Origin: Candidatus Poribacteria bacterium
GTDB taxonomy: Bacteria > Poribacteria > WGA-4E > WGA-3G
Length of the DNA: 64,000 bases
Reading direction: 5' to 3'
Assembly: GCA_965198235.1 (NCBI GenBank)
Contig: OZ240248.1
Span: 32,001-96,000 of the forward strand
In this document: positions 1 to 48,143 of the stretch, piece after piece
Layout of the letters: each line of letters starts with the position of its first letter
Position numbering within the stretch: the stretch's first letter is position 1
The notes under the pieces: generated by a model
What the model was told of the DNA's origin: nothing
The model's database searches: none
Seen by the model: only the letters and a program-made list of their open reading frames with translations
Made by a program: the position numbers and the translations under genes

Positions 1-645
1 GAGAGTCTCATCCGGCTCCGCACCGATTATATAGACCTTTACATGCTCCATCGCGACGACCCCGTGATTCCGGTTAAAACGATTATTGATTACCTGAACG
101 AGGAGATCGGTGCAGGACGCATCCGAGCTGCTGCCGCCTCTAATTGGCAACCTCAGCGCATTATTGATGCCAACACCTATGCCGCCGAAAACGGGTTAGT
201 GGGCTTTGTTTCTTGTAGTAACAACATCAGTCTCGCAGTACCGATGGAACCGATGTGGGGGGGTTGCGTTTGCGTCGACGATGCCGCTCGCGAATGGCAT
301 AAAGAGAGCCAGTTCCCGTTGATGCCCTGGTCCTCGCAAGCACGAGGTTTCTTCAGCGGCGCGTTTACACCGGAGAACCGCGAAAACGGAGATATGATGC
401 GCGTCTATTACAATAATGGCAATTTTGAAAGACTCGCACGCGCAAAGAAATTAGGCGAAAAATACGGCTATTCCGCAATTCAGGTCTCCCTCGCATACTG
501 CTTGAATATTCCATTCCCCGTTTTTCCAATTGTTGGACCTGCAACCTTAACGGAGATGGATTCCTCTGTCGGTGCCATGGGACTTGAACTTTCTGATGCT
601 GAAATGCGGTGGCTCAACTTAGAAACGGATGGAGACCCGCTATGA
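1..645 (+). CDS. Aldo/keto reductase, 5'-truncated by window edge
   Basis: Frame open from base 1 (ESLIRLRTDYIDLYMLHRDD, AKR motif); C-terminal PIVG...LELSDAEM typical of AKR family. Confidence 0.9.
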   Translation, partial: ESLIRLRTDYIDLYMLHRDDPVIPVKTIIDYLNEEIGAGRIRAAAASNWQPQRIIDANTYAAENGLVGFVSCSNNISLAVPMEPMWGGCVCVDDAAREWHKESQFPLMPWSSQARGFFSGAFTPENRENGDMMRVYYNNGNFERLARAKKLGEKYGYSAIQVSLAYCLNIPFPVFPIVGPATLTEMDSSVGAMGLELSDAEMRWLNLETDGDPL

Positions 646-1721
646 TCGCAAGAATTCTTTTTCTATTGTTCTGCTTTCAATTCATCTTTCTACCCCTCGG
701 TTTTTCCCAAGAAAGCTGAGGCGCGTGAAGCAATCCCGCAATTCCACGAGGCGGGATTGGTGAAGTCAGTTTGACTTCAGAAGAGATGAAGCGATTTCAG
801 AGTACTGTCAGTATGATGCGGTGGTTTGATGCACAGGGTGGACACCTCGAAACAAAAGGGATTTCCGCAGGTGGAAAGGTGATAGATATCCCGGTACATC
901 GACACCATGTTACCCTGAATATTTTTCGCGTTGATATCGGCTTGAAGTATCAATTCGGTTCTCAATGGATGCTTGAAGCGAATGTGCCCTACGAGACCAA
1001 AGTCCAAGAAGCAACTATTGAAGAAATTGAGACAGTCTCACAAGTGGAACGCGAAGCAATTGTACGCAATCGCGACAATCATCATCGAAATGAGACCTAC
1101 ACGGGACTCACTGACCCCGATGTTTTTCTGGGATACCATACGGTAAGCCTTTTTAAGGAAAACGATTTCTTAATGGGGCGCATCGGAACCACGATTCCAT
1201 TTGGCAAAACCGAAGAAGATCCGTGGAAGTTGGGGGATGCTGGATTTGAACATCTCCATATCCAGTTCGGAACCGGGACCTTTAATCCGGTCGCAGACCT
1301 TCATTACAGCCTCCCTCTCTATAAAGGGTTGGGGGTAAATGCCAGTGTCCGCGGGAAGTTTCCGTTCTATGAAAACAGCAAAACCTATCGCGGTTCCAGG
1401 GAACTTACATATACGGCGGGGCTGAGTTATCGTTTCAGTGACTGGCTTTCGTTACAGGCAGGCTACCTCGGCTTTTATCAAGCTTATGCGTATTGGGCAG
1501 GTGAGCAGGACATCAATACCGGACTCCGTTTCAGCATGGCATCCGTGGGCGCGTCAATTGCAACGCCTTATAACGTTCCGTTGTCTCTGATGCTGATGTT
1601 GCCTTTGAGCCAAGAAACGCTTTATGATGATACCAGCTCTTTACTGGGTGGTGCGTATGAAGAGAGCGACGCTTTTGAATTCGGACCATTGGTGTCGTTA
1701 ACAGTTTTATATGCCTTCTAA
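642..1721 (+). CDS. Putative outer-membrane beta-barrel transporter with two in-frame TGA codons (candidate selenoprotein, U26-G-A-U29), 359 aa
   Basis: ATG 642 overlaps the upstream stop (ATGA) and encodes signal peptide MIARILFLLFCFQFIFLPLGFS-QES, then TGA(717) GGC GCG TGA(726), continuing in frame into the track ORF 771..1721; alternating beta-strand pattern, GTG motif, C-terminal Y-A-F. Barrel call fairly secure; Sec recoding is inference. Confidence 0.7.
731..778 (+). promoter_or_regulatory. Candidate SECIS-like hairpins downstream of the in-frame UGAs
   Basis: CAATCCCGC(731-739)/GCGGGATTG(751-759) perfect 9-bp stem starting after an 11-nt spacer from the first TGA; second stem GAAGTCA(762-768)/TGACTTC(772-778) with GTT loop. 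Confidence 0.5.
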
Positions 1722-1804
1722 ATTTCGGTTACCCACTGGGAAGCACCGCACACGGTGGGATCAGTTTTCAACTGCTCGGAATCTTGATTAGGTGTTTAAG
1801 TGTC

Positions 1805-1905
1805 GTCGGTTGGGTTGAACGGGTAAGATCGAAACTGTATGAGACGCAAAGCCAGTGCGTTCTGGTCTATGCTATTGTCCGTGAGAACTACCGGGTGAAC
1901 CCAAC
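1805..1905 (+). repeat. Half copy of the fixed-geometry REP-like element (arm-68 nt-arm)
   Basis: GTCGGTTGGGTTGAACGG + 68 nt + CCGGGTGAACCCAAC; same arms as at 32806 and 33581. Confidence 0.75.
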
Positions 1906-2061: not shown

Positions 2062-4200
2062 ATGATGCAAATCATATTGTCGAAATTTTCAAGCCGATAT
2101 TGCGTAGCCTTAACACTGGCTCTTTTTTTCTTTGGTTGTGGTGTGCCAAATAATCCATATCCGAAATCTGAACATAATCAAGAGATTTACTACAACACGT
2201 TCGTTGCAGAGCCGAAGCACTTCGATCCAGCGATCTCCTACAGTTCGGACGAATACAGGTTCATTCAGCAGATTTATGAGCCGCCATTGCGATATCATTA
2301 CTTGAAAAGACCCTATGAACTCATCCCGTTGACCGTAGAGGCGGTCCCACAACCCCGCTACTTTGATGCCAACGGACAGCAGTTATCGCCCAATGCTCCT
2401 GCGGAATCAGTGGCGCGTGCCGTTTATGAAATTCGCATCCGTGCAGGGATTATGTATCAGCAACATCCCTGTTTTGCGAAGACTGAAGACGGGGAGTGGC
2501 GTTACCGTAACTTAGCGAAATCAGATGTCAAGGGCTTTAATGAGGTCAAAGATTTCTCAATGACGGGCACGCGTGAACTCATCGCTGCGGATTATGTCTA
2601 TCAGATCAAACGGATGGCAGATCCGAGCGTTTCCTGCCCTATTCTCAGCACCCTGAAGGATTATATCCTCGGCATGGAAGCGTATTCAACCGCTATTGCT
2701 AACGGACAGAAGGATGCTCCTTTTCCCGGTGTTGAGGTCGTGGATCGGTACACCTATCGGATTATCCTCAAGACGAAGTATCCGCAGTTTGTCTATTGGT
2801 TAGCGATGCCATTCTTTTCGCCAATGCCTAAAGAGGCTATTGATTTTTACAGTCAACCTGCTGTCGAAGATCGGAACATCACGATTGACAGGTTTCCTGT
2901 AGGAACTGGTGCTTATCGGATAGAAACCCTTCTCGCCCACAAAGAGATAGTTCTCGTGAAAAATGAGAATTTTCGGGTGGTACGTTACCCATCAAGTGGA
3001 GAACCCGGTGATAGGGAAGCCGGACTTTTGGACGACGCATGGGAAATTGTTCCCTTTATTCCAAGAATCGTCTACAAATTGGAGAAGGAACACATTCCGC
3101 GCTGGAATAAGTTCTTGCAAGGCTACTATGATAGTTCCGCTATCTATTCGGATACGTTTGACAGTGCCGTCACGTTTAACGATACAGGCGATCCGAGGAT
3201 AAGTGAATCAATGAAAGCGAAGGGTATCGTGCTACGTACCAGTGTTGAACCGACGACGAGATACCTTGCTTTTAATATGTTGGACGATACCCTTGGTGGG
3301 AACACAGTGGAAAAGCAGAAACTCCGTCAAGCCATTTCGATCGTTTTAGATTATGAGGAGTACGTTGAAATTTTCTACAATGGACGCGGTGTTAGTTCCC
3401 AGAGTCCCATTCCACCCGGTATCTTTGGTTACGAAGCGGGCGAGAGCGGCATGAACCCTTATGTCTATAATTGGGATGCCGTGAAGCAACGTCCGGTTCG
3501 CAAATCCATTGAAGAAGCGGGGCAGCTTCTCGCAGAAGCCGGCTACCCAGATGGACAGGATAGGAACGGAAACCCTCTCGTCGTCACTTTTGACAACGCA
3601 TGGAACTCCGCAGGTGCTACATCGCACATAATGTGGATGCGGAATAAATTAGATCAACTCGGCATCACCATGGAAAACCGAACGACTGATTACAATCGAT
3701 TTCGTGACAAAGTAAAGAACGGGAACTTCCAAATCATCTCATGGGGATGGCACGCAGATTACCCGGATGCAGAAAATTTCCTGTTTCTCCTCTACGGACC
3801 GAATGCCAGAGCCATTCACGGTGGTGAAAATGCGGCTAACTACGATAACGCCGAATACAACAAACTCTTTGAGCAGATGAAAAATATGGAAAACTCACAA
3901 GAACGGTTGGCAATAATTCGCGAAATGAATCATCTGCTTCAACGAGATGCACCGTGGGTCTTCACCTTCCATCCTGTTACTTTCGGTTTGTCGCATCAAT
4001 GGGTGAAGAACAGCAAGCCGAGTGCCTTGGGCGGCGGATCCCTGAAATATCTTCGCATTAATGCTGGCCAGCGGACGGAAAATCGGCAGGCATGGAATCA
4101 ACCCGTCGTCTGGCCCCTGTGGGTATGTATCGCTTTTCTCATTTTAGGCACTATTCCGGCTGTGATCACAATTTGGAAACGGGAACGAGGAACTCCGTAA
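2062..4200 (+). CDS. ABC transporter substrate-binding protein, OppA/DppA/NikA (family 5), lipoprotein with C-terminal membrane anchor
   Basis: Lipobox-like FFFGC; EPKHFDPA, PVGTGAY, LRQAIS, GWHADYPDAENFL motifs; hydrophobic C-terminal helix. Confidence 0.9.
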   Translation: MMQIILSKFSSRYCVALTLALFFFGCGVPNNPYPKSEHNQEIYYNTFVAEPKHFDPAISYSSDEYRFIQQIYEPPLRYHYLKRPYELIPLTVEAVPQPRYFDANGQQLSPNAPAESVARAVYEIRIRAGIMYQQHPCFAKTEDGEWRYRNLAKSDVKGFNEVKDFSMTGTRELIAADYVYQIKRMADPSVSCPILSTLKDYILGMEAYSTAIANGQKDAPFPGVEVVDRYTYRIILKTKYPQFVYWLAMPFFSPMPKEAIDFYSQPAVEDRNITIDRFPVGTGAYRIETLLAHKEIVLVKNENFRVVRYPSSGEPGDREAGLLDDAWEIVPFIPRIVYKLEKEHIPRWNKFLQGYYDSSAIYSDTFDSAVTFNDTGDPRISESMKAKGIVLRTSVEPTTRYLAFNMLDDTLGGNTVEKQKLRQAISIVLDYEEYVEIFYNGRGVSSQSPIPPGIFGYEAGESGMNPYVYNWDAVKQRPVRKSIEEAGQLLAEAGYPDGQDRNGNPLVVTFDNAWNSAGATSHIMWMRNKLDQLGITMENRTTDYNRFRDKVKNGNFQIISWGWHADYPDAENFLFLLYGPNARAIHGGENAANYDNAEYNKLFEQMKNMENSQERLAIIREMNHLLQRDAPWVFTFHPVTFGLSHQWVKNSKPSALGGGSLKYLRINAGQRTENRQAWNQPVVWPLWVCIAFLILGTIPAVITIWKRERGTP

Positions 4201-6491: not shown

Positions 6492-6556
6492 GCGTAGATA
6501 CCGTTTGAGTCCGACAGTTGATACGGCACATTCAATTGTCAAAGGAGAACGAAACG

Positions 6557-7552
6557 ATGGATAGACCTGAGAAACAACCACATAAAAAGGCGGCAATGCA
6601 CGTCGGTGTTCAAGGCATCGGAACATCTCTTAAAGAGTTGGCATTCCTCGTGCGCCACGGTGTAACGCACATGGATGCCTCCGTTGGCGATACTGAAACC
6701 GAAACGCTGGTTCGGCACAAAGCGGAAGCGGCAGAAGTGGGTGTCAGTCTTGAGATGATTCATATAGGGCTTCCGAGGAGCATTACGCTTGCCCAAGATG
6801 CGCAGCGCGATACGGATATTGATGCCGTTTGCAAAATGATCGAGAATGCAGCAGCGGCAGGACTGCGAGGTTTGAATTATAATTTTTGCATCCTAAATCA
6901 TCAGCGGACCGAGAGTACACCCGGACGTGGTGGCTCAAGTTACAGCACATTCGACTTCTCCAAGTACAATAACGAAACGCTCTCGGAGGCAGGTGAGGTG
7001 AGTCGCGAAGAAGCGTTTGATCGGATCGCGTATTTCCTCGAGCGTGTGATTCCAGTCGCCGAGGCAAACCGAGTCCAGATGGCGTGCCACCCGAACGATC
7101 CACCCGCGCCTGTGCTGAGGGGCGTTGAACGATGGAATTACCCCATCTTTGACGGCTTGAAACGTTTCGCTGAAATTGTGGATAGCCCGTATCACGGCTT
7201 TAATTTCTGCTGTGGAACAGTTTCGGAAGGTTTAGATGATCCGGGTACCGAATTCTACGAAATTCTTCACTATTTTGGAGAGCAGAAGAAACTTTTCAAC
7301 ATTCACTTTCGTAATATTCGTGGCGGACTGCACAACTTCCAAGAAGTCTGGCCCGACGAAGGACACTTGGACATGCACAAGGTTGCACAGGTCCTTCGAG
7401 ATGTAGAGTATCCGTATATGCTGATGCCCGACCATGCGCCATCACACGTGGATGACACATCGCCACCGGGTGTTTCTGGTAGGGTTCGACAGGCATGGGC
7501 ATTCCAGTTTGGATATATCATCGCCCTGATTCAGGTGGTAAATTCGGAATAG
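6557..7552 (+). CDS. uxuA: Mannonate dehydratase (UxuA)-family protein
   Basis: YFLERVIPVAE...MACHPNDPP, NFCCGT, HFRNI, MPDHAP motifs; RBS AAGGAG. Confidence 0.75.
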   Translation: MDRPEKQPHKKAAMHVGVQGIGTSLKELAFLVRHGVTHMDASVGDTETETLVRHKAEAAEVGVSLEMIHIGLPRSITLAQDAQRDTDIDAVCKMIENAAAAGLRGLNYNFCILNHQRTESTPGRGGSSYSTFDFSKYNNETLSEAGEVSREEAFDRIAYFLERVIPVAEANRVQMACHPNDPPAPVLRGVERWNYPIFDGLKRFAEIVDSPYHGFNFCCGTVSEGLDDPGTEFYEILHYFGEQKKLFNIHFRNIRGGLHNFQEVWPDEGHLDMHKVAQVLRDVEYPYMLMPDHAPSHVDDTSPPGVSGRVRQAWAFQFGYIIALIQVVNSE

Positions 7553-7636
7553 TTGGTTAATTAGTTTCAGTTAGAGGGACACACTCAGTCAAAACGTCCC
7601 TTAATTAATGGTAAATTCAACCTTGAGGAGGTAAAA

Positions 7637-8425
7637 ATGAAATCCATTATAGTTTGCTTAGCGATCATCACCATCAGTGTGACCTTCACGGTACATACTT
7701 ATGCGGAGATCGACTTTGAAACCGCAAGAGGAATTTGGCTACTCGACGAAGGTAAAGGTGATAAAATTGAGGATATCTCTGGAAACGAGAACCACGGTGA
7801 ACTTCAGGGCGGAAAATGGGTCAAAGGACCAGATCGGCGTCCCGCCGCCCTAAGTTTAAACGGACAAAATGATCGGGTTATCATTGCTGACTCCGACAGT
7901 ATGTATCTGGAAAAGGCGTGGTCAATTACTGCCTGGGCTTATGTGAACAAATCCGAGAACGGTTATGGACATATTCTCGGCAAAAGACCTGCGGGGGGTG
8001 TGGTGGCAAATTATGCCTTCAGGACAAGCTCCAGCGGCACCGGCTGGGAAGCTTACTTTTCGAACGGCGGCTGGAAAGGGGCTTGGAATCAAGGTCAAGT
8101 GAAAAAAGATGAATGGTTGTATATGACCGCAACTTATGACGCAAAGGATACCATCAAGATCTACGAAAATGCTGAGGAAATCGCTTCTGTTGGCGGGATG
8201 GGGAAACCAGCACCTCAGAATGAGACGGATGTCAACATCGGGGGTTGGACCAACAACACTTCAGAGACCCTTGATGGTATACTCTATGAGGTCGCAATTT
8301 TCAGTTCCGTACTGGAAGCAGAGGATATAGAGAAACTGATGGAGAAGGGAATCGAAAAACTACTGCCTGTTGAACCTGCTGATAAACTTGCCACTACGTG
8401 GGCGAGTCTCAAATCTCGGCAATAG
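7637..8425 (+). CDS. Secreted LamG-like jellyroll protein with C-terminal VEP...TTW motif
   Basis: Signal peptide; IWLLDEGKG...DISGNENHG, WLYMTATYD, GILYEVAIF; ends VEPADKLATTWASLK. Confidence 0.85.
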   Translation: MKSIIVCLAIITISVTFTVHTYAEIDFETARGIWLLDEGKGDKIEDISGNENHGELQGGKWVKGPDRRPAALSLNGQNDRVIIADSDSMYLEKAWSITAWAYVNKSENGYGHILGKRPAGGVVANYAFRTSSSGTGWEAYFSNGGWKGAWNQGQVKKDEWLYMTATYDAKDTIKIYENAEEIASVGGMGKPAPQNETDVNIGGWTNNTSETLDGILYEVAIFSSVLEAEDIEKLMEKGIEKLLPVEPADKLATTWASLKSRQ

Positions 8426-8437
8426 ACAAGGCAAACC

Positions 8438-8482
8438 GAGTGCAGCGGGTGCTACCTGAACGACCGGCTGCACTCATCTTTG
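8438..8482 (+). terminator. Probable intrinsic terminator hairpin
   Basis: GAGTGCAGC/GCTGCACTC stem followed by ATCTTT, just after the LamG gene. Confidence 0.5.
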
Positions 8483-8551
8483 AAGGGTTGCTGTAAGGAA
8501 GACAGCATGGCTGAGTATAAGGTAGCAACTTAGGTTAATGTGGAGATTACT

Positions 8552-9829
8552 ATGGCGAAGTCACCGAACGTACTTCTTATTCTCGCCGATGACCACGGCT
8601 ATGGTGATATTTCAGTTCACAACGGTCCATCAATTCAGACACCCAATATTGACAGGATTGCCGCAAACGGAGTGCGATTTACCAAATTTTATGCCAATTC
8701 CTCCGTCTGTTCTCCCAGTAGAGCCTCTCTTATGACCGGACGCTACCCCGACCGAGTCGGAGTCCCAGGCGTAATCCGCACTCATCCAGAAAACAGTTGG
8801 GGATACTTTCGACAGGATGCAGTCACACTCCCTTCAGTTTTGAAGCAGAAGGATTATCATACTGCACTCATCGGTAAGTGGCACCTTGGACTTGAACAGG
8901 AGAACCATCCGTGCAAGCGAGGCTTTGACCATTTTCACGGCTTCCTCGGCGACATGATGGATGACTACTACACGCATCTCCGGCACGACCTTAATTACAT
9001 GCGACACGGCTCCGATACGATCGATCCGCAGGGACACGCCACAGATCTCTTCACGGAATGGAGTGTGGATTTCATCCGTGCGCAGGCGCAATCCTCACAG
9101 CCTTTTTTCCTCTATCTTGCCTATAATGCACCCCATACACCGATCCAACCGCCTGACGATTGGGTGGAACGGGTGAGGGAACGCGAGCCGGATATTTCTC
9201 CACAACGCGCCAAATACATTGCCCTTGTTGAGCACATGGATACTGGCATTGGGCGAGTACTTGATACGCTTGCTGAAACAGATCAGTTGTCCAATACGCT
9301 CGTTATTTACACCTCTGACAACGGCGGGTCGATGGACGTTGGGGCGCACAACGGTCCCTTGCGCGGGCAAAAGGGCGAAATGTACGAAGGCGGCATCCGA
9401 GTCCCGGCGTGTGCAATGTGGCCAGGACACGTTCCCGATGGATATGTCACCGATCAGGTTGCATTGCTGATGGATCTTTTCCCGACAGTATGTGAGGTGG
9501 CAGGGGCACCGATCACTCATGAGATCGAGGGACGTTCAATTTGGCAAACACTCCAAGCGGAACAGCAAGACTTCTCTGACCGCATCCTTTACTGGTTGCG
9601 AAGAGAGGGGGGACAGCGGTTTCTTGGGCAGTGTCAGCATGCCGTACGGCGTGGGGACACTAAATTGTTGCACAACAGCCCTTTTGAGCCATTGGAGCTC
9701 TATGATTTGTCAAGCGATCCACTGGAAACGACAAACGGCTCACAGACACAGATGGACCTTTTTAGAGAAATGAGTCAGTTATTTCAGACGGAAACGCAAA
9801 AGGCTGGGTGTGTTCCGTGGCAGCGGTAA
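8552..9829 (+). CDS. Formylglycine-dependent sulfatase (arylsulfatase A-like)
   Basis: PNVLLILADD, CSPSRASLMTGRY, GKWHLG, TSDNG, KGEMYEGGIRVP. Confidence 0.95.
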   Translation: MAKSPNVLLILADDHGYGDISVHNGPSIQTPNIDRIAANGVRFTKFYANSSVCSPSRASLMTGRYPDRVGVPGVIRTHPENSWGYFRQDAVTLPSVLKQKDYHTALIGKWHLGLEQENHPCKRGFDHFHGFLGDMMDDYYTHLRHDLNYMRHGSDTIDPQGHATDLFTEWSVDFIRAQAQSSQPFFLYLAYNAPHTPIQPPDDWVERVREREPDISPQRAKYIALVEHMDTGIGRVLDTLAETDQLSNTLVIYTSDNGGSMDVGAHNGPLRGQKGEMYEGGIRVPACAMWPGHVPDGYVTDQVALLMDLFPTVCEVAGAPITHEIEGRSIWQTLQAEQQDFSDRILYWLRREGGQRFLGQCQHAVRRGDTKLLHNSPFEPLELYDLSSDPLETTNGSQTQMDLFREMSQLFQTETQKAGCVPWQR

Positions 9830-10097
9830 GCGTAGTCTCGAACGTGCTGTTTTGTTGAGTTGTTTTTGTTGTCATGGTTTTCAACCCGAAGAACTTGATG
9901 AATTTCAAGTCGCTTGAGCCACTGGGTCAATATATGTTACACTTAAGAAATTACTAAAGTTTGGACAATTTGTGTGCTATCCAGACTTACTTATCACCAA
10001 TGCGTGCCGACGTTTGTTAGAAACCTGAATGAATATTCTGTTGTTTCATTACTTTGATGAAACTCGTAGAAAAAGATTCTCGGCATCAACAGCGAGC

Positions 10098-10174
10098 AGC
10101 CCCAGCGGGGCGAAATGTCTATAGCGCGCGACACATAAATACCCTAAAGCCCCAGCGGGGCGAAATGTCTATAG
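10098..10174 (+). repeat. REP-like direct doublet, 27-bp unit, 50-nt period
   Basis: AGCCCCAGCGGGGCGAAATGTCTATAG at 10098-10124 and 10148-10174. Confidence 0.85.
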
Positions 10175-10223
10175 AAGAAGTATTGGGTTAGAAGAGTGCC
10201 TAAAGTATGGTTTCCATGATGTC

Positions 10224-10511
10224 ATGGAAGCTACCTCAGGAATAGATACGGGAAAGACGGGGGATTCATCAACATCTAAGCGCGTTGCGCGTCCAGTCAA
10301 CTCGGAGGAAAAATCTGGCTATACTTCCCTGCATGATGCGGCACGGGACAATGCTTACAAGGCAGCAGCAGTATTGCTGGAAAATGGCGCGGATGCTAAC
10401 GCTGAAGATGATAAAGGTCATACGCCTTTACACATCGCGGCAGAGAGGAAAGCGCATGAGGCAGTGAAGGTGCTATGCCGTCACCGAGAACGAAGGGGAT
10501 GGTCATGGTGA
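10224..10511 (+). CDS. Short ankyrin-repeat protein (about 2 repeats), possibly a remnant
   Basis: GYTSLHDAA...LLENGADANAEDDKGHTPLHIAA. Confidence 0.75.
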   Translation: MEATSGIDTGKTGDSSTSKRVARPVNSEEKSGYTSLHDAARDNAYKAAAVLLENGADANAEDDKGHTPLHIAAERKAHEAVKVLCRHRERRGWSW

Positions 10512-10553
10512 TCGTCGTTCAATACGTGAGCTCTAAAGAATTACGGATAGTCA

Positions 10554-12869
10554 ATGACAAATATAGACACAAATAATCTTGTTTTATGGTATCAGAAACC
10601 AGCCGAGGTATGGACAGATGCACTACCCATTGGAAACGGACGGCTCGGTGCTATGGTGTTTGGCGGTGTGGAACGCGAGCGTATTCAACTCAACGAAGAA
10701 ACTCTTTGGGATGGCGGGCCCCGCGACACCAACAACCCAAAAGCTTTGGAAGCACTCCAGAAAGTGCAGCAGTTGCTCTTTGACGACAAAAACGAAGAAG
10801 CCACTAAACTCGCTGGCGAGACGATGCTTGGCGTACCAGAACGTATCAAGTCCTATCAATCCTTGGGCGATCTGTCTCTGGAGTTTTCGTATGATGATGA
10901 TCCTACTGAGTATCGCCGAGAGTTAAATCTGAACACAGGCATTGCAAAGACAACCTATCGCTGCGGAGATGTCAATTTTAGCAGAGAAGTTTTTGCGACA
11001 GCGGTAGACAACCTCATTGTCGTTAGAATTGAATCTGACACAACAGGGCAACTCGCTTTCGATGTCGCGATAACTCGGGAACAAGATGCCACTGTTGAAG
11101 CAATTGCCGCTAATATCCTTAGATTGGATGGGCAATGTGGCAATAATGGAATGCGCTTTTCAGTGTATCTACAGGTGCAAATTAAGGGCGGAAAGGTCCA
11201 GTCGGAGAACGACCAGCTTGCTGTGCGTGACGCAAATGCCGTGACCCTTCTTCTCGCCGCTGCAACAAGTTACATTAATCAGAACGATGTGAGTGGAAGC
11301 CCGCACGCGCTTTGCGAAGGTCATCTCACTAATATTGACGCAAAATCTTATACGACGGTTCGAACAGATCATATTGTCGATCATCAGGACCTCTTTCAAC
11401 GAGTGCATCTGGATCTCGGTACTACCGACGCTACGAATTTCCCTACTGACGAACGTTTGGAAGCAGTAAAGGTAGGCGCATCGGATCCGGAACTTGTTGT
11501 CCTTTACTTCCAGTATGGACGCTATTTGATGATGGGAAGTTCGAGACCAGGATGCTTCCCCGCAAATCTGCAAGGCATCTGGAACGAGCACATGAACGCC
11601 CCTTGGAATAGCGATTTCCATACCAATATCAACCTCCAAATGAACTATTGGATCCCTGAGATTTGCAACCTTGCGGAGTGCCATATCCCCTTATTCGATT
11701 ATATGGATACACTCGTTGGACCGGGGAGTCGCACAGCGAAGTGCCATTACGGTGCCAATGGCTGGGTTGTCCATCATCTTTCTGACGTATGGGGTTTCAC
11801 AACACCTGCTGACGGCATCTGGGGTATTTGGCCCGTAGGTGCCGCGTGGCTATGTGAACATGTGTGGGAACACTATCTTTTCGGTGGCGATAAAGATTTT
11901 CTCATAGGACAGGGCTATCCACTCATGAAAGGTGCCGCCCGCTTCATACTGGATTTTCTCGTTGAGGCACCCGAAGGCACGCCTTTTGCTGGTAAACTCG
12001 TCACGAATCCGTCACACTCACCCGAAAACAGCTTCCTAAAGTCTGATGGCACACGCTCCCTTTTTACCTACGCTGCAACGATGGACCTGGAAATTATTCA
12101 TGAGCTCTTTACCAACTGTATCGCCTGCATTGATGTTCTCGGGGAGGATGCCGAATTCCGTGCTGAATTGGTTTCCGCTCTGGAACGACTCGCACCGCTC
12201 CAGATTAGCGAGAAAACAGGACGGCTGCAGGAATGGGTCTTTGACTACGACGAACCGGAACCAGGACACCGACACATGTCCCACATGTATGCACTCCACC
12301 CAAGTTGCCAGATTACGCTGCATGGGACACCGAAGTTAGCAGCCGCGGCAAAGAAATCGTTGGAATATCGCTTGGCACACGGGGGTGGACATACGGGTTG
12401 GAGCCGCGCGTGGCTCGTCAATTTCTGGGCACGGCTTGAGGATGCCGAGGAGGCATACACGCATCTCCAAGCACTTCTGGCGAAATGCACCTTAACGAAC
12501 CTCTTTGATACACATCCACCTTTCCAGATCGATGGAAATTTCGGGGGAACCTCCGGCATTGCAGAGATGTTGCTTCAGAGCCATGCGGGTGAGATTCACC
12601 TATTGCCCGCGCTTCCAAAAGCATGGGGCACAGGAAGCGCCAGTGGATTGCGTGCCCGCGGCGGATTTGAAGTGGCAATGGCATGGGAGAATGGACAACT
12701 CACCGAGGCACACCTTCATTCCACATTGGGAGAAGACTGCACTGTCCGAACAGCCGCAACTGTTTCGGTGACATGTGATGGTGTACCGGTTGAAACGGAA
12801 CAATCGGAGTCGATTGTCGCATTTGGAACAGAGGCACGAAAAACTTACGCACTATCGGTTTCGAGTTAA
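10554..12869 (+). CDS. Glycoside hydrolase family 95 (alpha-1,2-L-fucosidase-like)
   Basis: [58 protein letters not shown]. Confidence 0.95.
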
Positions 12870-29610: not shown

Positions 29611-29820
29611 ATGGACAAAACAAAATTAAAAATCAGCGGAATGTCCTGTCAACATTGCGTCAAAACCGTAACGGATGCACTCATAGAACTTCCGGGCGTT
29701 CGGCGTGCGAAAGTAAACTTGCGCAAAGCCGAGGCTGTCGTTCACTTCGATGCCTCACGCGTCACCCCTGCAAATCTCACAGAGGCGATAACCGCAGTGG
29801 GTTTTAAGGTTTTTGAATAA
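29611..29820 (+). CDS. copZ: Heavy-metal-associated (HMA) copper chaperone, CopZ-like
   Basis: LKISGMSCQHC...GF motif, 69 aa. Confidence 0.88.
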   Translation: MDKTKLKISGMSCQHCVKTVTDALIELPGVRRAKVNLRKAEAVVHFDASRVTPANLTEAITAVGFKVFE

Positions 29821-45862: not shown

Positions 45863-45948
45863 GGTCGAGTGGTGGAATCGGTAGACACAACGGACTTAAA
45901 ATCCGTCGCCTGTAAAAAGGTGTGAGGGTTCAAGTCCCTCCTCGACCA
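45863..45948 (+). tRNA. tRNA-Leu(TAA)
   Basis: Acceptor GGTCGAG/CTCGACC, anticodon arm ACGGA-CTTAAAA-TCCGT, long variable arm, GGTTCAAGT; CCA not encoded. Confidence 0.93.
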
Positions 45949-46020
45949 TGATTTAGGACCTGATGAAAAAAAAGCCGAATCCAGGCAAAACCGAGCAGAA
46001 GGTCCATAGTTAACACTTGC

Positions 46021-46094
46021 CGCAGGGTAGAGCAGCCAGGTAGCTCGTCGGGCTCATAACCCGGAGGACGGGGGTTCAAATCCCCCCCCTGCAA
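46021..46094 (+). tRNA. tRNA-fMet(CAT), initiator
   Basis: C1:A72 mismatch, GGG/CCC anticodon stem, CTCATAA loop. Confidence 0.93.
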
Positions 46095-46209
46095 TCCCCC
46101 TTGAACTTTTTGTTTTTAAGGAACACAATTAGATTCACAAAGCCCTGCAATTGAAGTATTTTGCCCTTGTAGGATCCATCCCTTGTATCCACTTTTCTGT
46201 GCTGTCTTG

Positions 46210-47490
46210 TCAACTACCCAAGCCTAAAGACTTGGGAAACCTGTTAAGAGTGTCAAACAGCATTAGCTGTGTTGCTTTCTTAAAGCCCGAAATCTTTGCT
46301 TCGTTTTTGTTTCTCGTTTCATAGAGGGTGGTAACCCACGGCTCTCCACGAAGGGCAGCAGCTGCCCTGAGAAGTATGTTTATCGCAGCGTTGTGGTCTC
46401 GGTCTAATACCGTGTCACAAAAACTACAATTAAAGGTTCGTATCGCTAACGAAAGTTTCTTTAGCGATTTCTGACCGCAGCATGAGCAAGTTTGGGACGT
46501 ATTCTTAGGGTCAACTTGGTGGAAGTGGAAACCGTCTCTTTCGGCTATGTTTCCACACCACTCAAAGAAGGTTACCCAAGACGCGTCGGAAATGCTCTTG
46601 CTAAGGTGTTTATTTTTTACCATATTAGATACACGTAAGTCCTCTGCCACTAAAACATTGTTTTCTTTATGGTGGTAGAGTTTATAGACAAGTTTCCCGA
46701 TAAAGTCTTTGCGTTTGTTCGTTGTCCGTTCTTGGTGTAAGGCGGACGCATGCACGGCTTTATACCAACGCTTACTCCTTTTTTTACGACGGGATTGTGT
46801 TTTAGAGTGTTTTCGTAGTAAGCCTTCTGCTTTGCGATACCAACGCGGGTTGTCTTCCTTTTCACCGTCAGAAGTCGTCAAGTAATGCGTAGTGCCAACG
46901 TCAATCGCAATAGCGTCAGTCGGTTCAACTTTCGGGGTATCCGGCAACTCACAGGAAATATGTGCATACCAACCACTTGCCTTCTTAACAATTGAGACTT
47001 CTTTCGGGTCACCTTCAATCGGACGGTGCATGTATATTTTGACTTCACCTAACTTTGGCACTTTCAAACGATTGTGTCTCAAGTTAGTTTCAACAATCGG
47101 GTTCTGGCGGACACGTTCACCTGTCTTGAGTTTGTGTTTGCGCAGACTCCATGTCAAAGAACGGACGCGCTTTTTGTAACGAGGATACCCTTTTTTAGCG
47201 TCACCGTTCTTGCAACGTCTACGAAAGTTCGCAAAGGCTTTATCGTTGCGTTTGAGAGCAGAAACTTGAAAATCTTGTGGCACTTCACGAAAATCGTCGT
47301 GTTTCTCACGGGCTTTCGTCAACAATGTTTGCTGTTCATTCAGCGTAACAAAATGACCTTTTTCCTCATAAGTATATTTGCGATTATCACGGGCAGAGTT
47401 CTGCAGGTATTTTAAATGATCAAACCACTCTAAGAGTGTTTGGGCTTGTGTCTTTGTAGGACACAACGCATATCTAAATGTTAATTTCAT
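46210..47490 (-). CDS. tnpB: RNA-guided endonuclease TnpB
   Basis: FRYALCPT N-terminus; AIDVG, VAEDL, TSQTCSCC, CSFC, DRDHNAAINI. Confidence 0.93.
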   Translation of the reverse strand: MKLTFRYALCPTKTQAQTLLEWFDHLKYLQNSARDNRKYTYEEKGHFVTLNEQQTLLTKAREKHDDFREVPQDFQVSALKRNDKAFANFRRRCKNGDAKKGYPRYKKRVRSLTWSLRKHKLKTGERVRQNPIVETNLRHNRLKVPKLGEVKIYMHRPIEGDPKEVSIVKKASGWYAHISCELPDTPKVEPTDAIAIDVGTTHYLTTSDGEKEDNPRWYRKAEGLLRKHSKTQSRRKKRSKRWYKAVHASALHQERTTNKRKDFIGKLVYKLYHHKENNVLVAEDLRVSNMVKNKHLSKSISDASWVTFFEWCGNIAERDGFHFHQVDPKNTSQTCSCCGQKSLKKLSLAIRTFNCSFCDTVLDRDHNAAINILLRAAAALRGEPWVTTLYETRNKNEAKISGFKKATQLMLFDTLNRFPKSLGLGS

Positions 47491-47614
47491 GGTATATCCG
47501 TTATCCGTTCTTAACCCCTAATCAGTGGGTAGGCAGACACATAACCTTGCGGTTATGCTGATTATGTCTGCCAACGGATACTCTAATTATACCACATTTT
47601 CGGCTAAAAGTCTG
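47491..47614 (-). promoter_or_regulatory. tnpB promoter (extended -10 TG-N-TATAAT) and conserved structured 5' leader
   Basis: Homologous to 28086-28212. Confidence 0.7.
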
Positions 47615-47698
47615 CGGAAAAGTGGGCTTTTGTTTGCGAAAGCCAAACAAAAGGTAACGTTCTGCGAGCCGCAAGCCTCGCAGAACCCCACTTTTCCG
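47615..47698 (+). repeat. Three-way-junction palindromic insert (MITE or small structured RNA)
   Basis: CGGAAAAGTGGG/CCCACTTTTCCG closes two hairpins CTTTTGTTTG..GAAA..CAAACAAAAG and GTTCTGCGAG..GCAA..CTCGCAGAAC; absent from the homologous spot in the first element. Confidence 0.7.
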
Positions 47699-47935
47699 AA
47701 AATGTTTTTTTACATAGACCCATGGTCTAATTCACAAGGGCGGGCATTCCTCCCAAACCTAAAGGTTGGGGCTTCCTGCCCGTAAACGTGGGTGAAGAGA
47801 GTGTTGGATAGTTATCACTCTTCCCGCCAAGCCCAAAACCCAAATGGCTCCCGAGAATGAACCGCATTGTTGTTCGGCTTTTACCGGTTTTCGGTGCTCG
47901 CTTCTGTGGTTGAGGGCACGCCGGAGCAAAAACAT

Positions 47936-47964
47936 TTGACTTTTTTTTAATTATATGTTATACT
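47936..47964 (+). promoter_or_regulatory. Sigma70 promoter for tRNA-tilS-hpt
   Basis: TTGACT-17-TATACT, extended TG. Confidence 0.7.
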
Positions 47965-48009
47965 TAATGTAGATTTTAGGGCAGAATTTACACGCCCATT
48001 CAGACACGT

Positions 48010-48083
48010 GCCGGTGTAGCTCAGTGGTTTAGAGCACACGACTCATAATCGTGCTGTCCGGAGTTCGACTCTCCGCACCGGCA
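48010..48083 (+). tRNA. tRNA with CAT anticodon (Ile2 or elongator Met)
   Basis: Acceptor GCCGGTG/CACCGGC, arm CACGA-CTCATAA-TCGTG, GTTCGACT; directly upstream of tilS. Confidence 0.9.
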
Positions 48084-48143
48084 TTGCCTTTTTGGCGCAT
48101 CTTGCAAGTTTCCTAAACTTGCTGTCAAAAATAGGCATTTTTC

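Follow-up and report, generated by a model that had tools for sequence, protein, structure and literature searches.

The stretch analysed here, called the window, comprises 64,000 nucleotides of a Candidatus Poribacteria bacterium (assembly GCA_965198235.1, contig OZ240248.1, positions 32,001 to 96,000). Close to its start lies a gene predicted to encode an outer-membrane β-barrel protein with two selenocysteine (Sec, U) residues. When TGA is read as Sec, positions 642-1721 of the forward strand form a single 359-codon frame closed by TAA (1719-1721). From position 642, the frame reads MIARILFLLFCFQFIFLPLGFSQES-TGA-GA-TGA-SNP, and both TGAs, at codons 26 and 29, are the only stops ahead of a shorter, TTG-started open reading frame (ORF). 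Indeed, the ORF list made with genetic code table 11 holds just this 316-residue piece, at 771-1721. The ATG at 642-644 shares the tetranucleotide ATGA with the stop codon (643-645) of an upstream aldo/keto reductase gene. The protein displays three His clusters, HRHH (residues 86-89), NHHRNE (146-151) and EHLHIQFGTG (203-212), and terminates with LYAF, the last residue being Phe. The initial annotation of this locus had listed the overlapping ATG, the leader, the two in-frame TGAs, the His clusters and the terminal Phe, and all of them are confirmed by the window sequence.

Conservation and decoding of the two TGA codons

A six-frame search with the read-through protein was performed in 61 related genomes and then in 176 genomes of the phylum. 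A match was found in 54 of the 61 related genomes. Of the 36 other genomes of the genus, 34 share with the source genome the ortholog with two TGAs (71-90% identity), and two (G004 and G012) show a paralog only. This paralog, of about 59% identity and with one TGA, occurs in nearly all genomes of the genus, the source genome being an exception. Homologs of 36-50% identity from three other families of the order carry two TGAs, apart from two that carry one. Phylum-wide, 140 of the 176 genomes gave a match (families f1, 111/111; f2, 11/11; f3, 10/29; f4, 7/7), and none of the 17 genomes from seven further Poribacteria families was matched by this search. Among the matches listed in the phylum search, all 150 rows contain one to three TGAs.

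To this, an alignment of 60 loci was added, composed of the 30 best orthologs (including that of the source genome), all 18 loci from other families and 12 paralogs. The pattern Q-[ED]-[SA]-X-[GPS]-A-U-S-N-[PL] stands in register in all 60, and an ATG with a hydrophobic leader is found 20-30 codons upstream in each of them. The second site is TGA throughout; the first is TGA in 46 loci and Cys in 14, encoded by TGT in the 12 paralogs and by TGC in loci L055 and L063. All 46 two-TGA loci have their TGAs at identical aligned codons. Similarly, UGAUSN[PL] is present in 79 of 80 Poribacteria loci, the 80th (L146) being a chance match elsewhere in the locus. Judging from these alignments, the presence of two in-frame TGAs at the same codons is more than chance. 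The conservation of the TGAs and of the sequence on both sides of them, raised in the initial annotation, holds across the order and beyond. In another genus of the family, g13 (genomes G146, G126, G118, G143, G130, G124 and G120), a copy of about 60% identity carries two TGAs where genus g1 has a first-site Cys, so the choice between Sec and Cys has changed between genera.

In public databases, the family is hidden by its annotation. In a set of 5.8 billion proteins, all 120 relatives among the matches listed are 290-327 residues long, match 84-91% of the query length and have their start downstream of the motif; the named ones, again among the matches listed, are called "hypothetical protein" and begin at an internal Met. 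Since the public records start there, the signal peptide is missing from the annotation, and an abundant family would therefore be misannotated in hundreds of genomes and metagenomes. A HMMER search gave 393 representatives with E<=0.001, 225 with E<=1e-10 and 49 with E<=1e-30. Full-length homologs with two Cys carry CPACSNP (P0126, P0131 and P0153) or, in more distant ones, CAGCRNP, CPACQNP and CAACGNP; names in the CPACSNP group are those of Bacteroidota, namely Saprospirales, Cyclobacteriaceae, Flavobacteriales and Terrimonas. The residue aligned with the TGAs in homologs is Cys and never Trp, the sole Trp being those of two database proteins, P0168 (SWGAWSNP) and P0189 (CSLWSNP, at its one Sec site). 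These are most simply explained by a gene caller that used a code with TGA as Trp.

Many relatives begin right after S-N-P without a signal peptide, which hinted at unnoticed Sec forms beyond the Poribacteria. Such truncated relatives served as seeds for a metagenome scan that yielded 80 loci, of which 77 were read and three (L218, L219 and L252) were dropped because the match starts at a contig end. The 77 comprise 58 UxxU, 6 CxxU, 12 CxxC and 0 UxxC loci, plus one cut by the contig end; they include Poribacteria and duplicates, the others spanning a G+C content of 0.38-0.74 in the folded stretch (see below). The UxxU variants are UPAUSNP, UGAUSNP, UPAUTNP, UPAUANP and UGGUSNP, and in each locus read the signal peptide ends just before the motif. 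One named truncated relative belongs to the Acidobacteriota, and one ESM-Atlas neighbour cluster is labelled mostly Myxococcota.

The source genome (5.17 Mb, 2 contigs) contains the full Sec apparatus whose presence the initial annotation had left to be checked. A genome search detected tRNA-Sec (78.1 bits), selA (592.5), selB (348.2) and selD (359.8), all above the curated cut-offs. selB and tRNA-Sec are 170 nt apart on the same strand (contig C1:3673008-3675162, minus strand), and selD (contig C1:3115227-3116150, minus strand) has its own in-frame TGA (VKCAG-U-ASKL), which by its sequence makes it a selenoprotein itself. On its side, TGA ends 12 of the 44 window ORFs of at least 250 residues (TAA 20, TAG 12) as well as the gene just upstream; TGA is an ordinary stop in this genome.

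Support for the codons themselves comes from public sequencing runs, 20 of which contain the stretch or part of it, 8 being recorded as RNA; the contigs of four were compared. A 2475-nt contig from a metatranscriptome library, which is no proof of transcription since DNA may be present, covers window positions 400-1899 with 8 differences; none of those listed (663, 1814 and 1835) falls at 717-728. Contigs from two further runs cross both TGAs without difference, and those of runs X6 and X8, which do not cover the whole gene, are uninformative. The contigs of three other public runs thus agree at 717-728, and the TGAs are not assembly errors.

The RNA that follows the UGAs is predicted to be structured. 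A perfect 9-bp hairpin begins 2 nt after the second UGA and is followed by an 8-bp hairpin (minimum free energy, MFE, z -2.36 and -2.90). In the DNA alignment of the 60 loci, 86.8% of the cells are paired versus 84.4 +/- 0.3 in shuffled alignments, none of 500 reaching the observed value, and slid-partner controls give 24-53%. Double changes are seen at six pairs; two of these, in hairpin 2, have switched from AU to GC (in 9 and 4 sequences). A hairpin at the same place but of different sequence is also present in distant homologs, with compensatory variants, for instance CCCAU/AUGGG or CCCGUCU/AGACGGG. We folded the 66 nt after the second codon against mononucleotide shuffles in 112 distinct sequences, identical stretches being counted once. 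The mean z was -2.14 for 87 UxxU and -2.51 for 16 CxxU versus -1.29 for 9 CxxC sequences, a comparison weakened by the small control group (n=9), whose members are related, as are the Sec-form sequences. The two-hairpin layout recurs in Sec forms only, over a G+C content of 0.38-0.74 in the 66-nt stretches. In hairpin 1, the apical loop opens 11 nt downstream of the second UGA and 20 nt downstream of the first; in selD, a candidate loop picked by eye, and absent from the predicted MFE fold, starts 14 nt after the UGA. The hairpins stand where a bacterial selenocysteine insertion sequence (SECIS) is expected, hairpin 1 being the candidate. Under the bacterial SECIS model, one element would be within reach of both UGAs here, which would fit the absence of UxxC forms. 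Collectively, these data make it very probable that both TGAs encode Sec and that this is a genuine two-Sec protein. The coordinates of the gene and its features are given in Table 1.

Table 1. Features of the barrel gene and its upstream flank (window positions)
Feature	Position	Strand	Basis
Aldo/keto reductase gene, 3' part (5' end outside the window)	1..645	+	Pfam PF00248, E 1.1e-27; whole gene (locus L255, 9695-10645) E 3.6e-48
GGAG, likely ribosome-binding site, 7 nt 5' of the ATG	631..634	+	Sequence; GGAG/GGA precedes the ATG in many genus orthologs; function inferred
Full coding sequence, 359 codons + TAA, with two UGA as predicted Sec	642..1721	+	TGA=U translation; orthologs align over residues 1-359
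Predicted signal peptide, residues 1-22, putative cleavage before Gln23	642..707	+	Judged by eye; hydrophobic N-terminus ending [AS]-Q-[ED]-[SA] in 60/60 aligned loci
UGA, predicted Sec26, first UxxU position	717..719	+	TGA in 46/60 aligned loci, Cys in 14
UGA, predicted Sec29, second UxxU position	726..728	+	TGA in 60/60 aligned loci; Cys aligned in Bacteroidota and other homologs
S-N-P continuation of the motif	729..737	+	S31, N32 and P33 invariant in alignment A4 (23 sequences); N-P in every metagenome motif variant
Hairpin 1, candidate SECIS, 9-bp stem 731-739/751-759, 11-nt loop	731..759	+	MFE folds; inner helix 88.6% paired (59 distinct sequences)
Hairpin 2, 8-bp stem 761-768/772-779, loop GUU	761..779	+	MFE folds; 92.2% paired
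Predicted β-barrel body, residues 52-359, Phe end	795..1718	+	AlphaFold2 model, VIA-align, Foldseek
Span of the conserved His and D158	843..1259	+	H68 (843-845), H86/H88 (897-905), H147/H148 (1080-1085), H204/H206 (1251-1259)

The barrel body and its relation to known proteins

The AlphaFold2 model, built with a 45-sequence alignment, has a mean predicted local distance difference test score (pLDDT) of 83.3 and a predicted template modelling score of 0.80, with 206 residues at pLDDT of at least 90. Its strands start at residue 52, and a helix (134-147) ends at His147/His148. With Foldseek, FapF comes on top (E 6.5e-14) and the COG4313 channel 4rl8 next (E 3.6e-11). VIA-align gives Z 23.6 for 4rl8 (root-mean-square deviation 2.7 over 251/267 residues, 12% identity) and Z 23.2 for FapF (5o65), and lower scores for autotransporter barrels (Z<=18) and PcoB (Z 12.1). 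A few database relatives carry a precomputed match to PF13557 (Phenol_MetA_deg) and the ESM-Atlas neighbours are PF13557 clusters; a Pfam search of the Cys homologs returned nothing except one HMA fusion and a weak OMP_b-brl match. The body can be assigned with high confidence to the 12-strand outer-membrane barrels of COG4313/FapF type, and the outer-membrane barrel of the initial annotation is thereby sustained. Residues H68, H88, H147, H148, D158, H204, H206 and Q208 are invariant in the 45 sequences and H86 is conserved in at least 90% of them; the same His/Asp/Gln set is invariant in alignment A4 (23 sequences). According to the model, the invariant His would be divided between two long loops and the outer half of strands 1-2.

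The best structural match, the COG4313 channel of Pseudomonas putida F1, has the same size and the same 12 strands. It differs by the absence of a U/CxxU-SNP N-terminus and of the invariant His set, and no copper-cluster context is described for it; its proposed substrates are reportedly hydrophobic molecules. The barrel fold of FapF, the secretion channel for functional amyloid in Pseudomonas (5o65/5o67), is equally close, but FapF is encoded in the fap amyloid operon and has no Sec/Cys motif; no fap genes were found near any barrel locus examined. In its possible mode of working, the nearest analogue is PcoB/CopB (7pge; PF05275), likewise a barrel of the outer membrane. Its gene neighbours a multicopper oxidase gene in copper loci, and the protein has a flexible metal-binding N-terminal region. 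The structural likeness is limited to a generic 12-strand match, and PcoB/CopB has a Met/His-rich stretch where the present family has the U/CxxU pair. Furthermore, the window protein has no Pfam CopB match at E<=1, and on this sequence criterion it is not a PcoB/CopB member. A copper-gene neighbourhood of the PcoB/CopB kind is found at loci L196, L199, L201 and L202 but not at the window copy.

Outer-membrane selenoproteins have been catalogued before, namely the GSU2204/MtrB-PioB family (NF041027) and a Sec-containing TonB-dependent receptor (PMC13188914, PMC9312934, PMC12013277). As far as the accessible text of these catalogues goes, they are also barrels with predicted Sec, but they belong to other barrel families, and MtrB/PioB is listed with one Sec. 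UxxU is listed in the same text of PMC13188914 for Prx-like, NF041115 and FmdB proteins, NF041115 being also metal-related. These share two Sec at CxxC spacing, but they are soluble proteins of HMA-like, thioredoxin-fold or zinc-ribbon type. In HMA metallochaperones such as MerP and CopZ, a GMxCxxC pair for soft metals is held in a ferredoxin-like fold, whereas the barrel motif lies in a low-confidence tail, is followed by S-N-P and has no such fold around it. The initial annotation had drawn a parallel with SelL, of which the UxxU spacing stands and the rest does not: the motif precedes a barrel, no thioredoxin Pfam match was obtained, and the likeness is limited to spacing because the fold is not thioredoxin-like.

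No NCBIfam family (release 20) matches at E<=1, NF041027 included. The literature searched (on Sec in Poribacteria, outer-membrane selenoproteins, COG4313, UxxU and copper resistance) contains no description of the family, nor does the accessible text of the selenoprotein catalogues (PMC13188914, PMC9312934, PMC12013277, bioRxiv 10.1101/2022.07.06.499078), whose supplementary tables may list more. On both grounds, we rate it as a new selenoprotein family, in agreement with the earlier remark that it is not recognisable among described selenoproteins.

Gene neighbourhoods of the family

In 77 of 80 Poribacteria loci, the barrel gene is preceded on its own strand by an aldo/keto reductase homolog, with fewer than 150 nt between the end of the latter and the motif in 62 of them. 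The genus paralog, on the other hand, sits in a Cus-type cluster, whose order is the same in 5/5 loci examined: a 146-residue Cys-rich ORF, the barrel, a His/Met-rich protein, two OEP proteins, a CusB-like protein and a resistance-nodulation-division (RND) pump. The CusB-like fusion protein of this cluster has four HMBD repeats. In these loci (L170-L174), the His/Met-rich protein is a secreted protein of 209 residues that contains HKxHExHHHGDH, GMMMK and YKMMMSHMGMEGM; its gene follows that of the paralog barrel at a distance of about 20-30 nt (13-67). It has no Pfam match at 1e-4, and its composition suggests binding of Cu(I)/Ag(I). The source genome keeps a Cus-type cluster (Cys-rich c5, His/Met-rich c4 and OEP) at contig C1:675897-679523.

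In other lineages, a secreted fusion of an HMA domain (GM[ST]CxxC) with a thioredoxin domain (WCxPC) is encoded directly upstream of the barrel in 15 of the 54 metagenome loci with a length of 4.5 kb or more, and it adjoins Cys and Sec forms alike. A multicopper oxidase gene is found near the barrel in L196, L199, L201 and L202, an HMA-P-type ATPase gene in L193 and L205, and an OEP gene in L199, while L192 and L226 have an RND pump gene immediately upstream of the barrel. Moreover, in homolog P0137 the barrel itself is extended by an HMA domain at its C-terminus (5e-11). The metal-binding or redox function put forward in the initial annotation is therefore backed by the genomic context. In the window, a 100-residue frame at 29626-29811 (plus strand; contig C1:61626-61811) shows weak similarity to the HMA-thioredoxin protein, within the HMA portion of the latter (E 8.6e-4).

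A TonB-dependent receptor or a BlaI/BlaR1-like pair lies upstream in yet other lineages. In one Poribacteria lineage (L208, L212 and L214-L216, around 2441-3845), genes for a Penicillinase_R repressor (BlaI/CopY-type) and a Peptidase_M56 sensor (BlaR1-type) are directly upstream. In several lineages (L170-L174, L167/L168, L221-L227, L225-L237 and L243-L253), the barrel gene is immediately preceded by a small Cys-rich ORF of 114-171 residues; these ORFs have CC/CCCC motifs, a hydrophobic N-terminus and mostly a Pro-rich C-terminal tail, and no Pfam match. Elsewhere in the window, positions 6518-12869 encode a UxuA-like dehydratase, a Laminin_G_3 protein, a sulfatase and a GH95 fucosidase and look like a glycan-degradation stretch, a capacity said to be present in sponge-associated Poribacteria. 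Positions 45863-48084 contain tRNA-Leu(taa) and two tRNA-Met(cat).

Proposed function and alternative explanations

As a whole, the data are best explained, in our view, by an exported two-Sec barrel that would probably serve as a channel or relay for a soft metal, presumably copper; we hold this explanation to be a likely one, short of confident. The context tips the balance slightly towards the family handling a thiophilic metal, with copper as the most likely one. In the proposed scheme, a signal peptide of the general secretory type is very probably removed, leaving a mature N-terminus Q-E-S-Sec-G-A-Sec-S-N-P. Both UGAs are very probably decoded by the SelA/SelB/SelD/tRNA-Sec of the genome, presumably guided by the hairpin or hairpins that follow the second of them. 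The mature N-terminus is then joined to the 12-strand barrel by a predicted flexible tether of some 25 residues. On the periplasmic side, the di-selenolate (di-thiolate in Cys forms) would take Cu(I) from periplasmic partners or give it to them. The partner of the Poribacteria paralog would be the His/Met-rich protein with the Cus-like RND pump; elsewhere, it would be the secreted HMA-thioredoxin, whose thioredoxin half may keep the pair reduced. The invariant His (68, 88, 147, 148, 204 and 206) could form a channel site for passage of the metal. The wider generalisation is more tentative, and we would put it somewhat below an even chance: that of a widespread, hitherto unrecognised family of extracytoplasmic di-Sec proteins in which an N-terminal "selenolate claw" on an outer-membrane channel would form a copper or soft-metal relay with HMA-thioredoxin and Cus-type partners, and in which the second position would always be Sec when any Sec is used.

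Several observations weigh against this explanation. With respect to the RNA, the single-sequence z is weak in some cases (+0.12 for L066, +0.41 for L054 and -0.12 for the genome's own selD); since it is not uniformly significant, the comparative layout was relied upon instead. The stems also overlap conserved codons, so part of the hairpin conservation reflects protein constraint. No Rfam family was matched in window 600-900 at E<=10, the four weak unrelated matches including no SECIS family, a result that is uninformative. In the model, the tail with the motif (residues 13-47) has pLDDT below 50, and the placement of the His and of the N-terminus is taken from the strand order of the model, not from coordinates. 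The protein scores 21 bits with Pfam PF13557, just short of the cut-off of 22. Regarding the context, the window copy is outside any metal cluster, its conserved partner is the aldo/keto reductase, and downstream of it lie a peptide-type ABC (ATP-binding cassette) transporter, with a family-5 solute-binding protein and a permease, and sugar enzymes. The source genome has lost the Cus-linked barrel paralog, with 335 nt left between the flanking c5 and c4 genes, and no HMA-thioredoxin fusion was found in it, a search for one having turned up just a free-standing thioredoxin (E 4.5e-9) and two stretches that weakly resemble HMA. Finally, HMA domains do not discriminate copper from Hg, Cd, Zn or Ag.

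As for decoding, it could be argued that the TGAs are true stops behind a dead leader and that the barrel is made from the TTG at 771 or from an internal Met, as all 120 relatives among the matches listed are annotated. We give this almost no credence: a barrel made in this way would lack a signal peptide and could not get to the outer membrane; leader, motif and the two TGAs are conserved in frame down to 30-36% identity and over the whole G+C range of 0.38-0.74; and the Cys forms are continuous ORFs. A reading of the UGAs as Trp, Cys or Gly, by near-cognate or reassigned decoding, could invoke the Trp of P0168 and P0189, which, as said, most simply come from gene callers using another code. 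It is very improbable given that TGA is an ordinary stop in the window, that the aligned residue is Cys, one base away from TGA, and that the full Sec machinery and hairpins at the SECIS position are present.

Other functions of a two-Sec barrel deserve more weight. The UxxU/CxxC pair could be a redox centre, a diselenide/dithiol switch which would gate the channel or reduce, for example, Cu(II) to Cu(I) and would itself be reduced by thioredoxin. Such a role would suit the CxxC spacing, which is that of thiol-disulfide oxidoreductases, the thioredoxin domain with WC[GSAK]PC of the partner in 15 loci, and the redox nature of most bacterial selenoproteins catalogued in the accessible text of PMC13188914. 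However, the same partner also has an HMA domain, one homolog fuses HMA to the barrel, and the motif is on a low-confidence tail and not in a thioredoxin fold; we consider it unlikely as the main function, although the redox and metal-ligand readings are compatible and do not exclude each other. Less likely again is that the barrel conducts an organic or hydrophobic substrate and is tied to the aldo/keto reductase in Poribacteria, the copper neighbours being a matter of other subfamilies. The closest solved fold (COG4313), the near-threshold PF13557 score, the reductase gene upstream in nearly all Poribacteria loci, overlapping the barrel gene through ATGA in the window, and the transport and sugar genes around it would all agree with such a channel. 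Nevertheless, U/CxxU-SNP and all the His are invariant between reductase-linked and copper-cluster copies, it is hard to see what this soft/borderline ligand set would do for an organic substrate, and the genus paralog, at 59% identity, sits in the Cus cluster.

If the explanation as an exported two-Sec barrel for a soft metal is true, a two-Sec outer-membrane protein would be added to the prokaryotic selenoproteome. Selenium use in marine bacteria and sponge symbionts would, in turn, be tied to copper traffic or homeostasis at the outer membrane, for which the route of copper is still poorly known. The natural series CxxC/CxxU/UxxU, in otherwise conserved proteins, would offer a comparison of Sec and Cys as metal ligands in an oxidising compartment. 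Furthermore, the occurrence of Cys forms in Bacteroidota of culturable type would make the function open to genetics.

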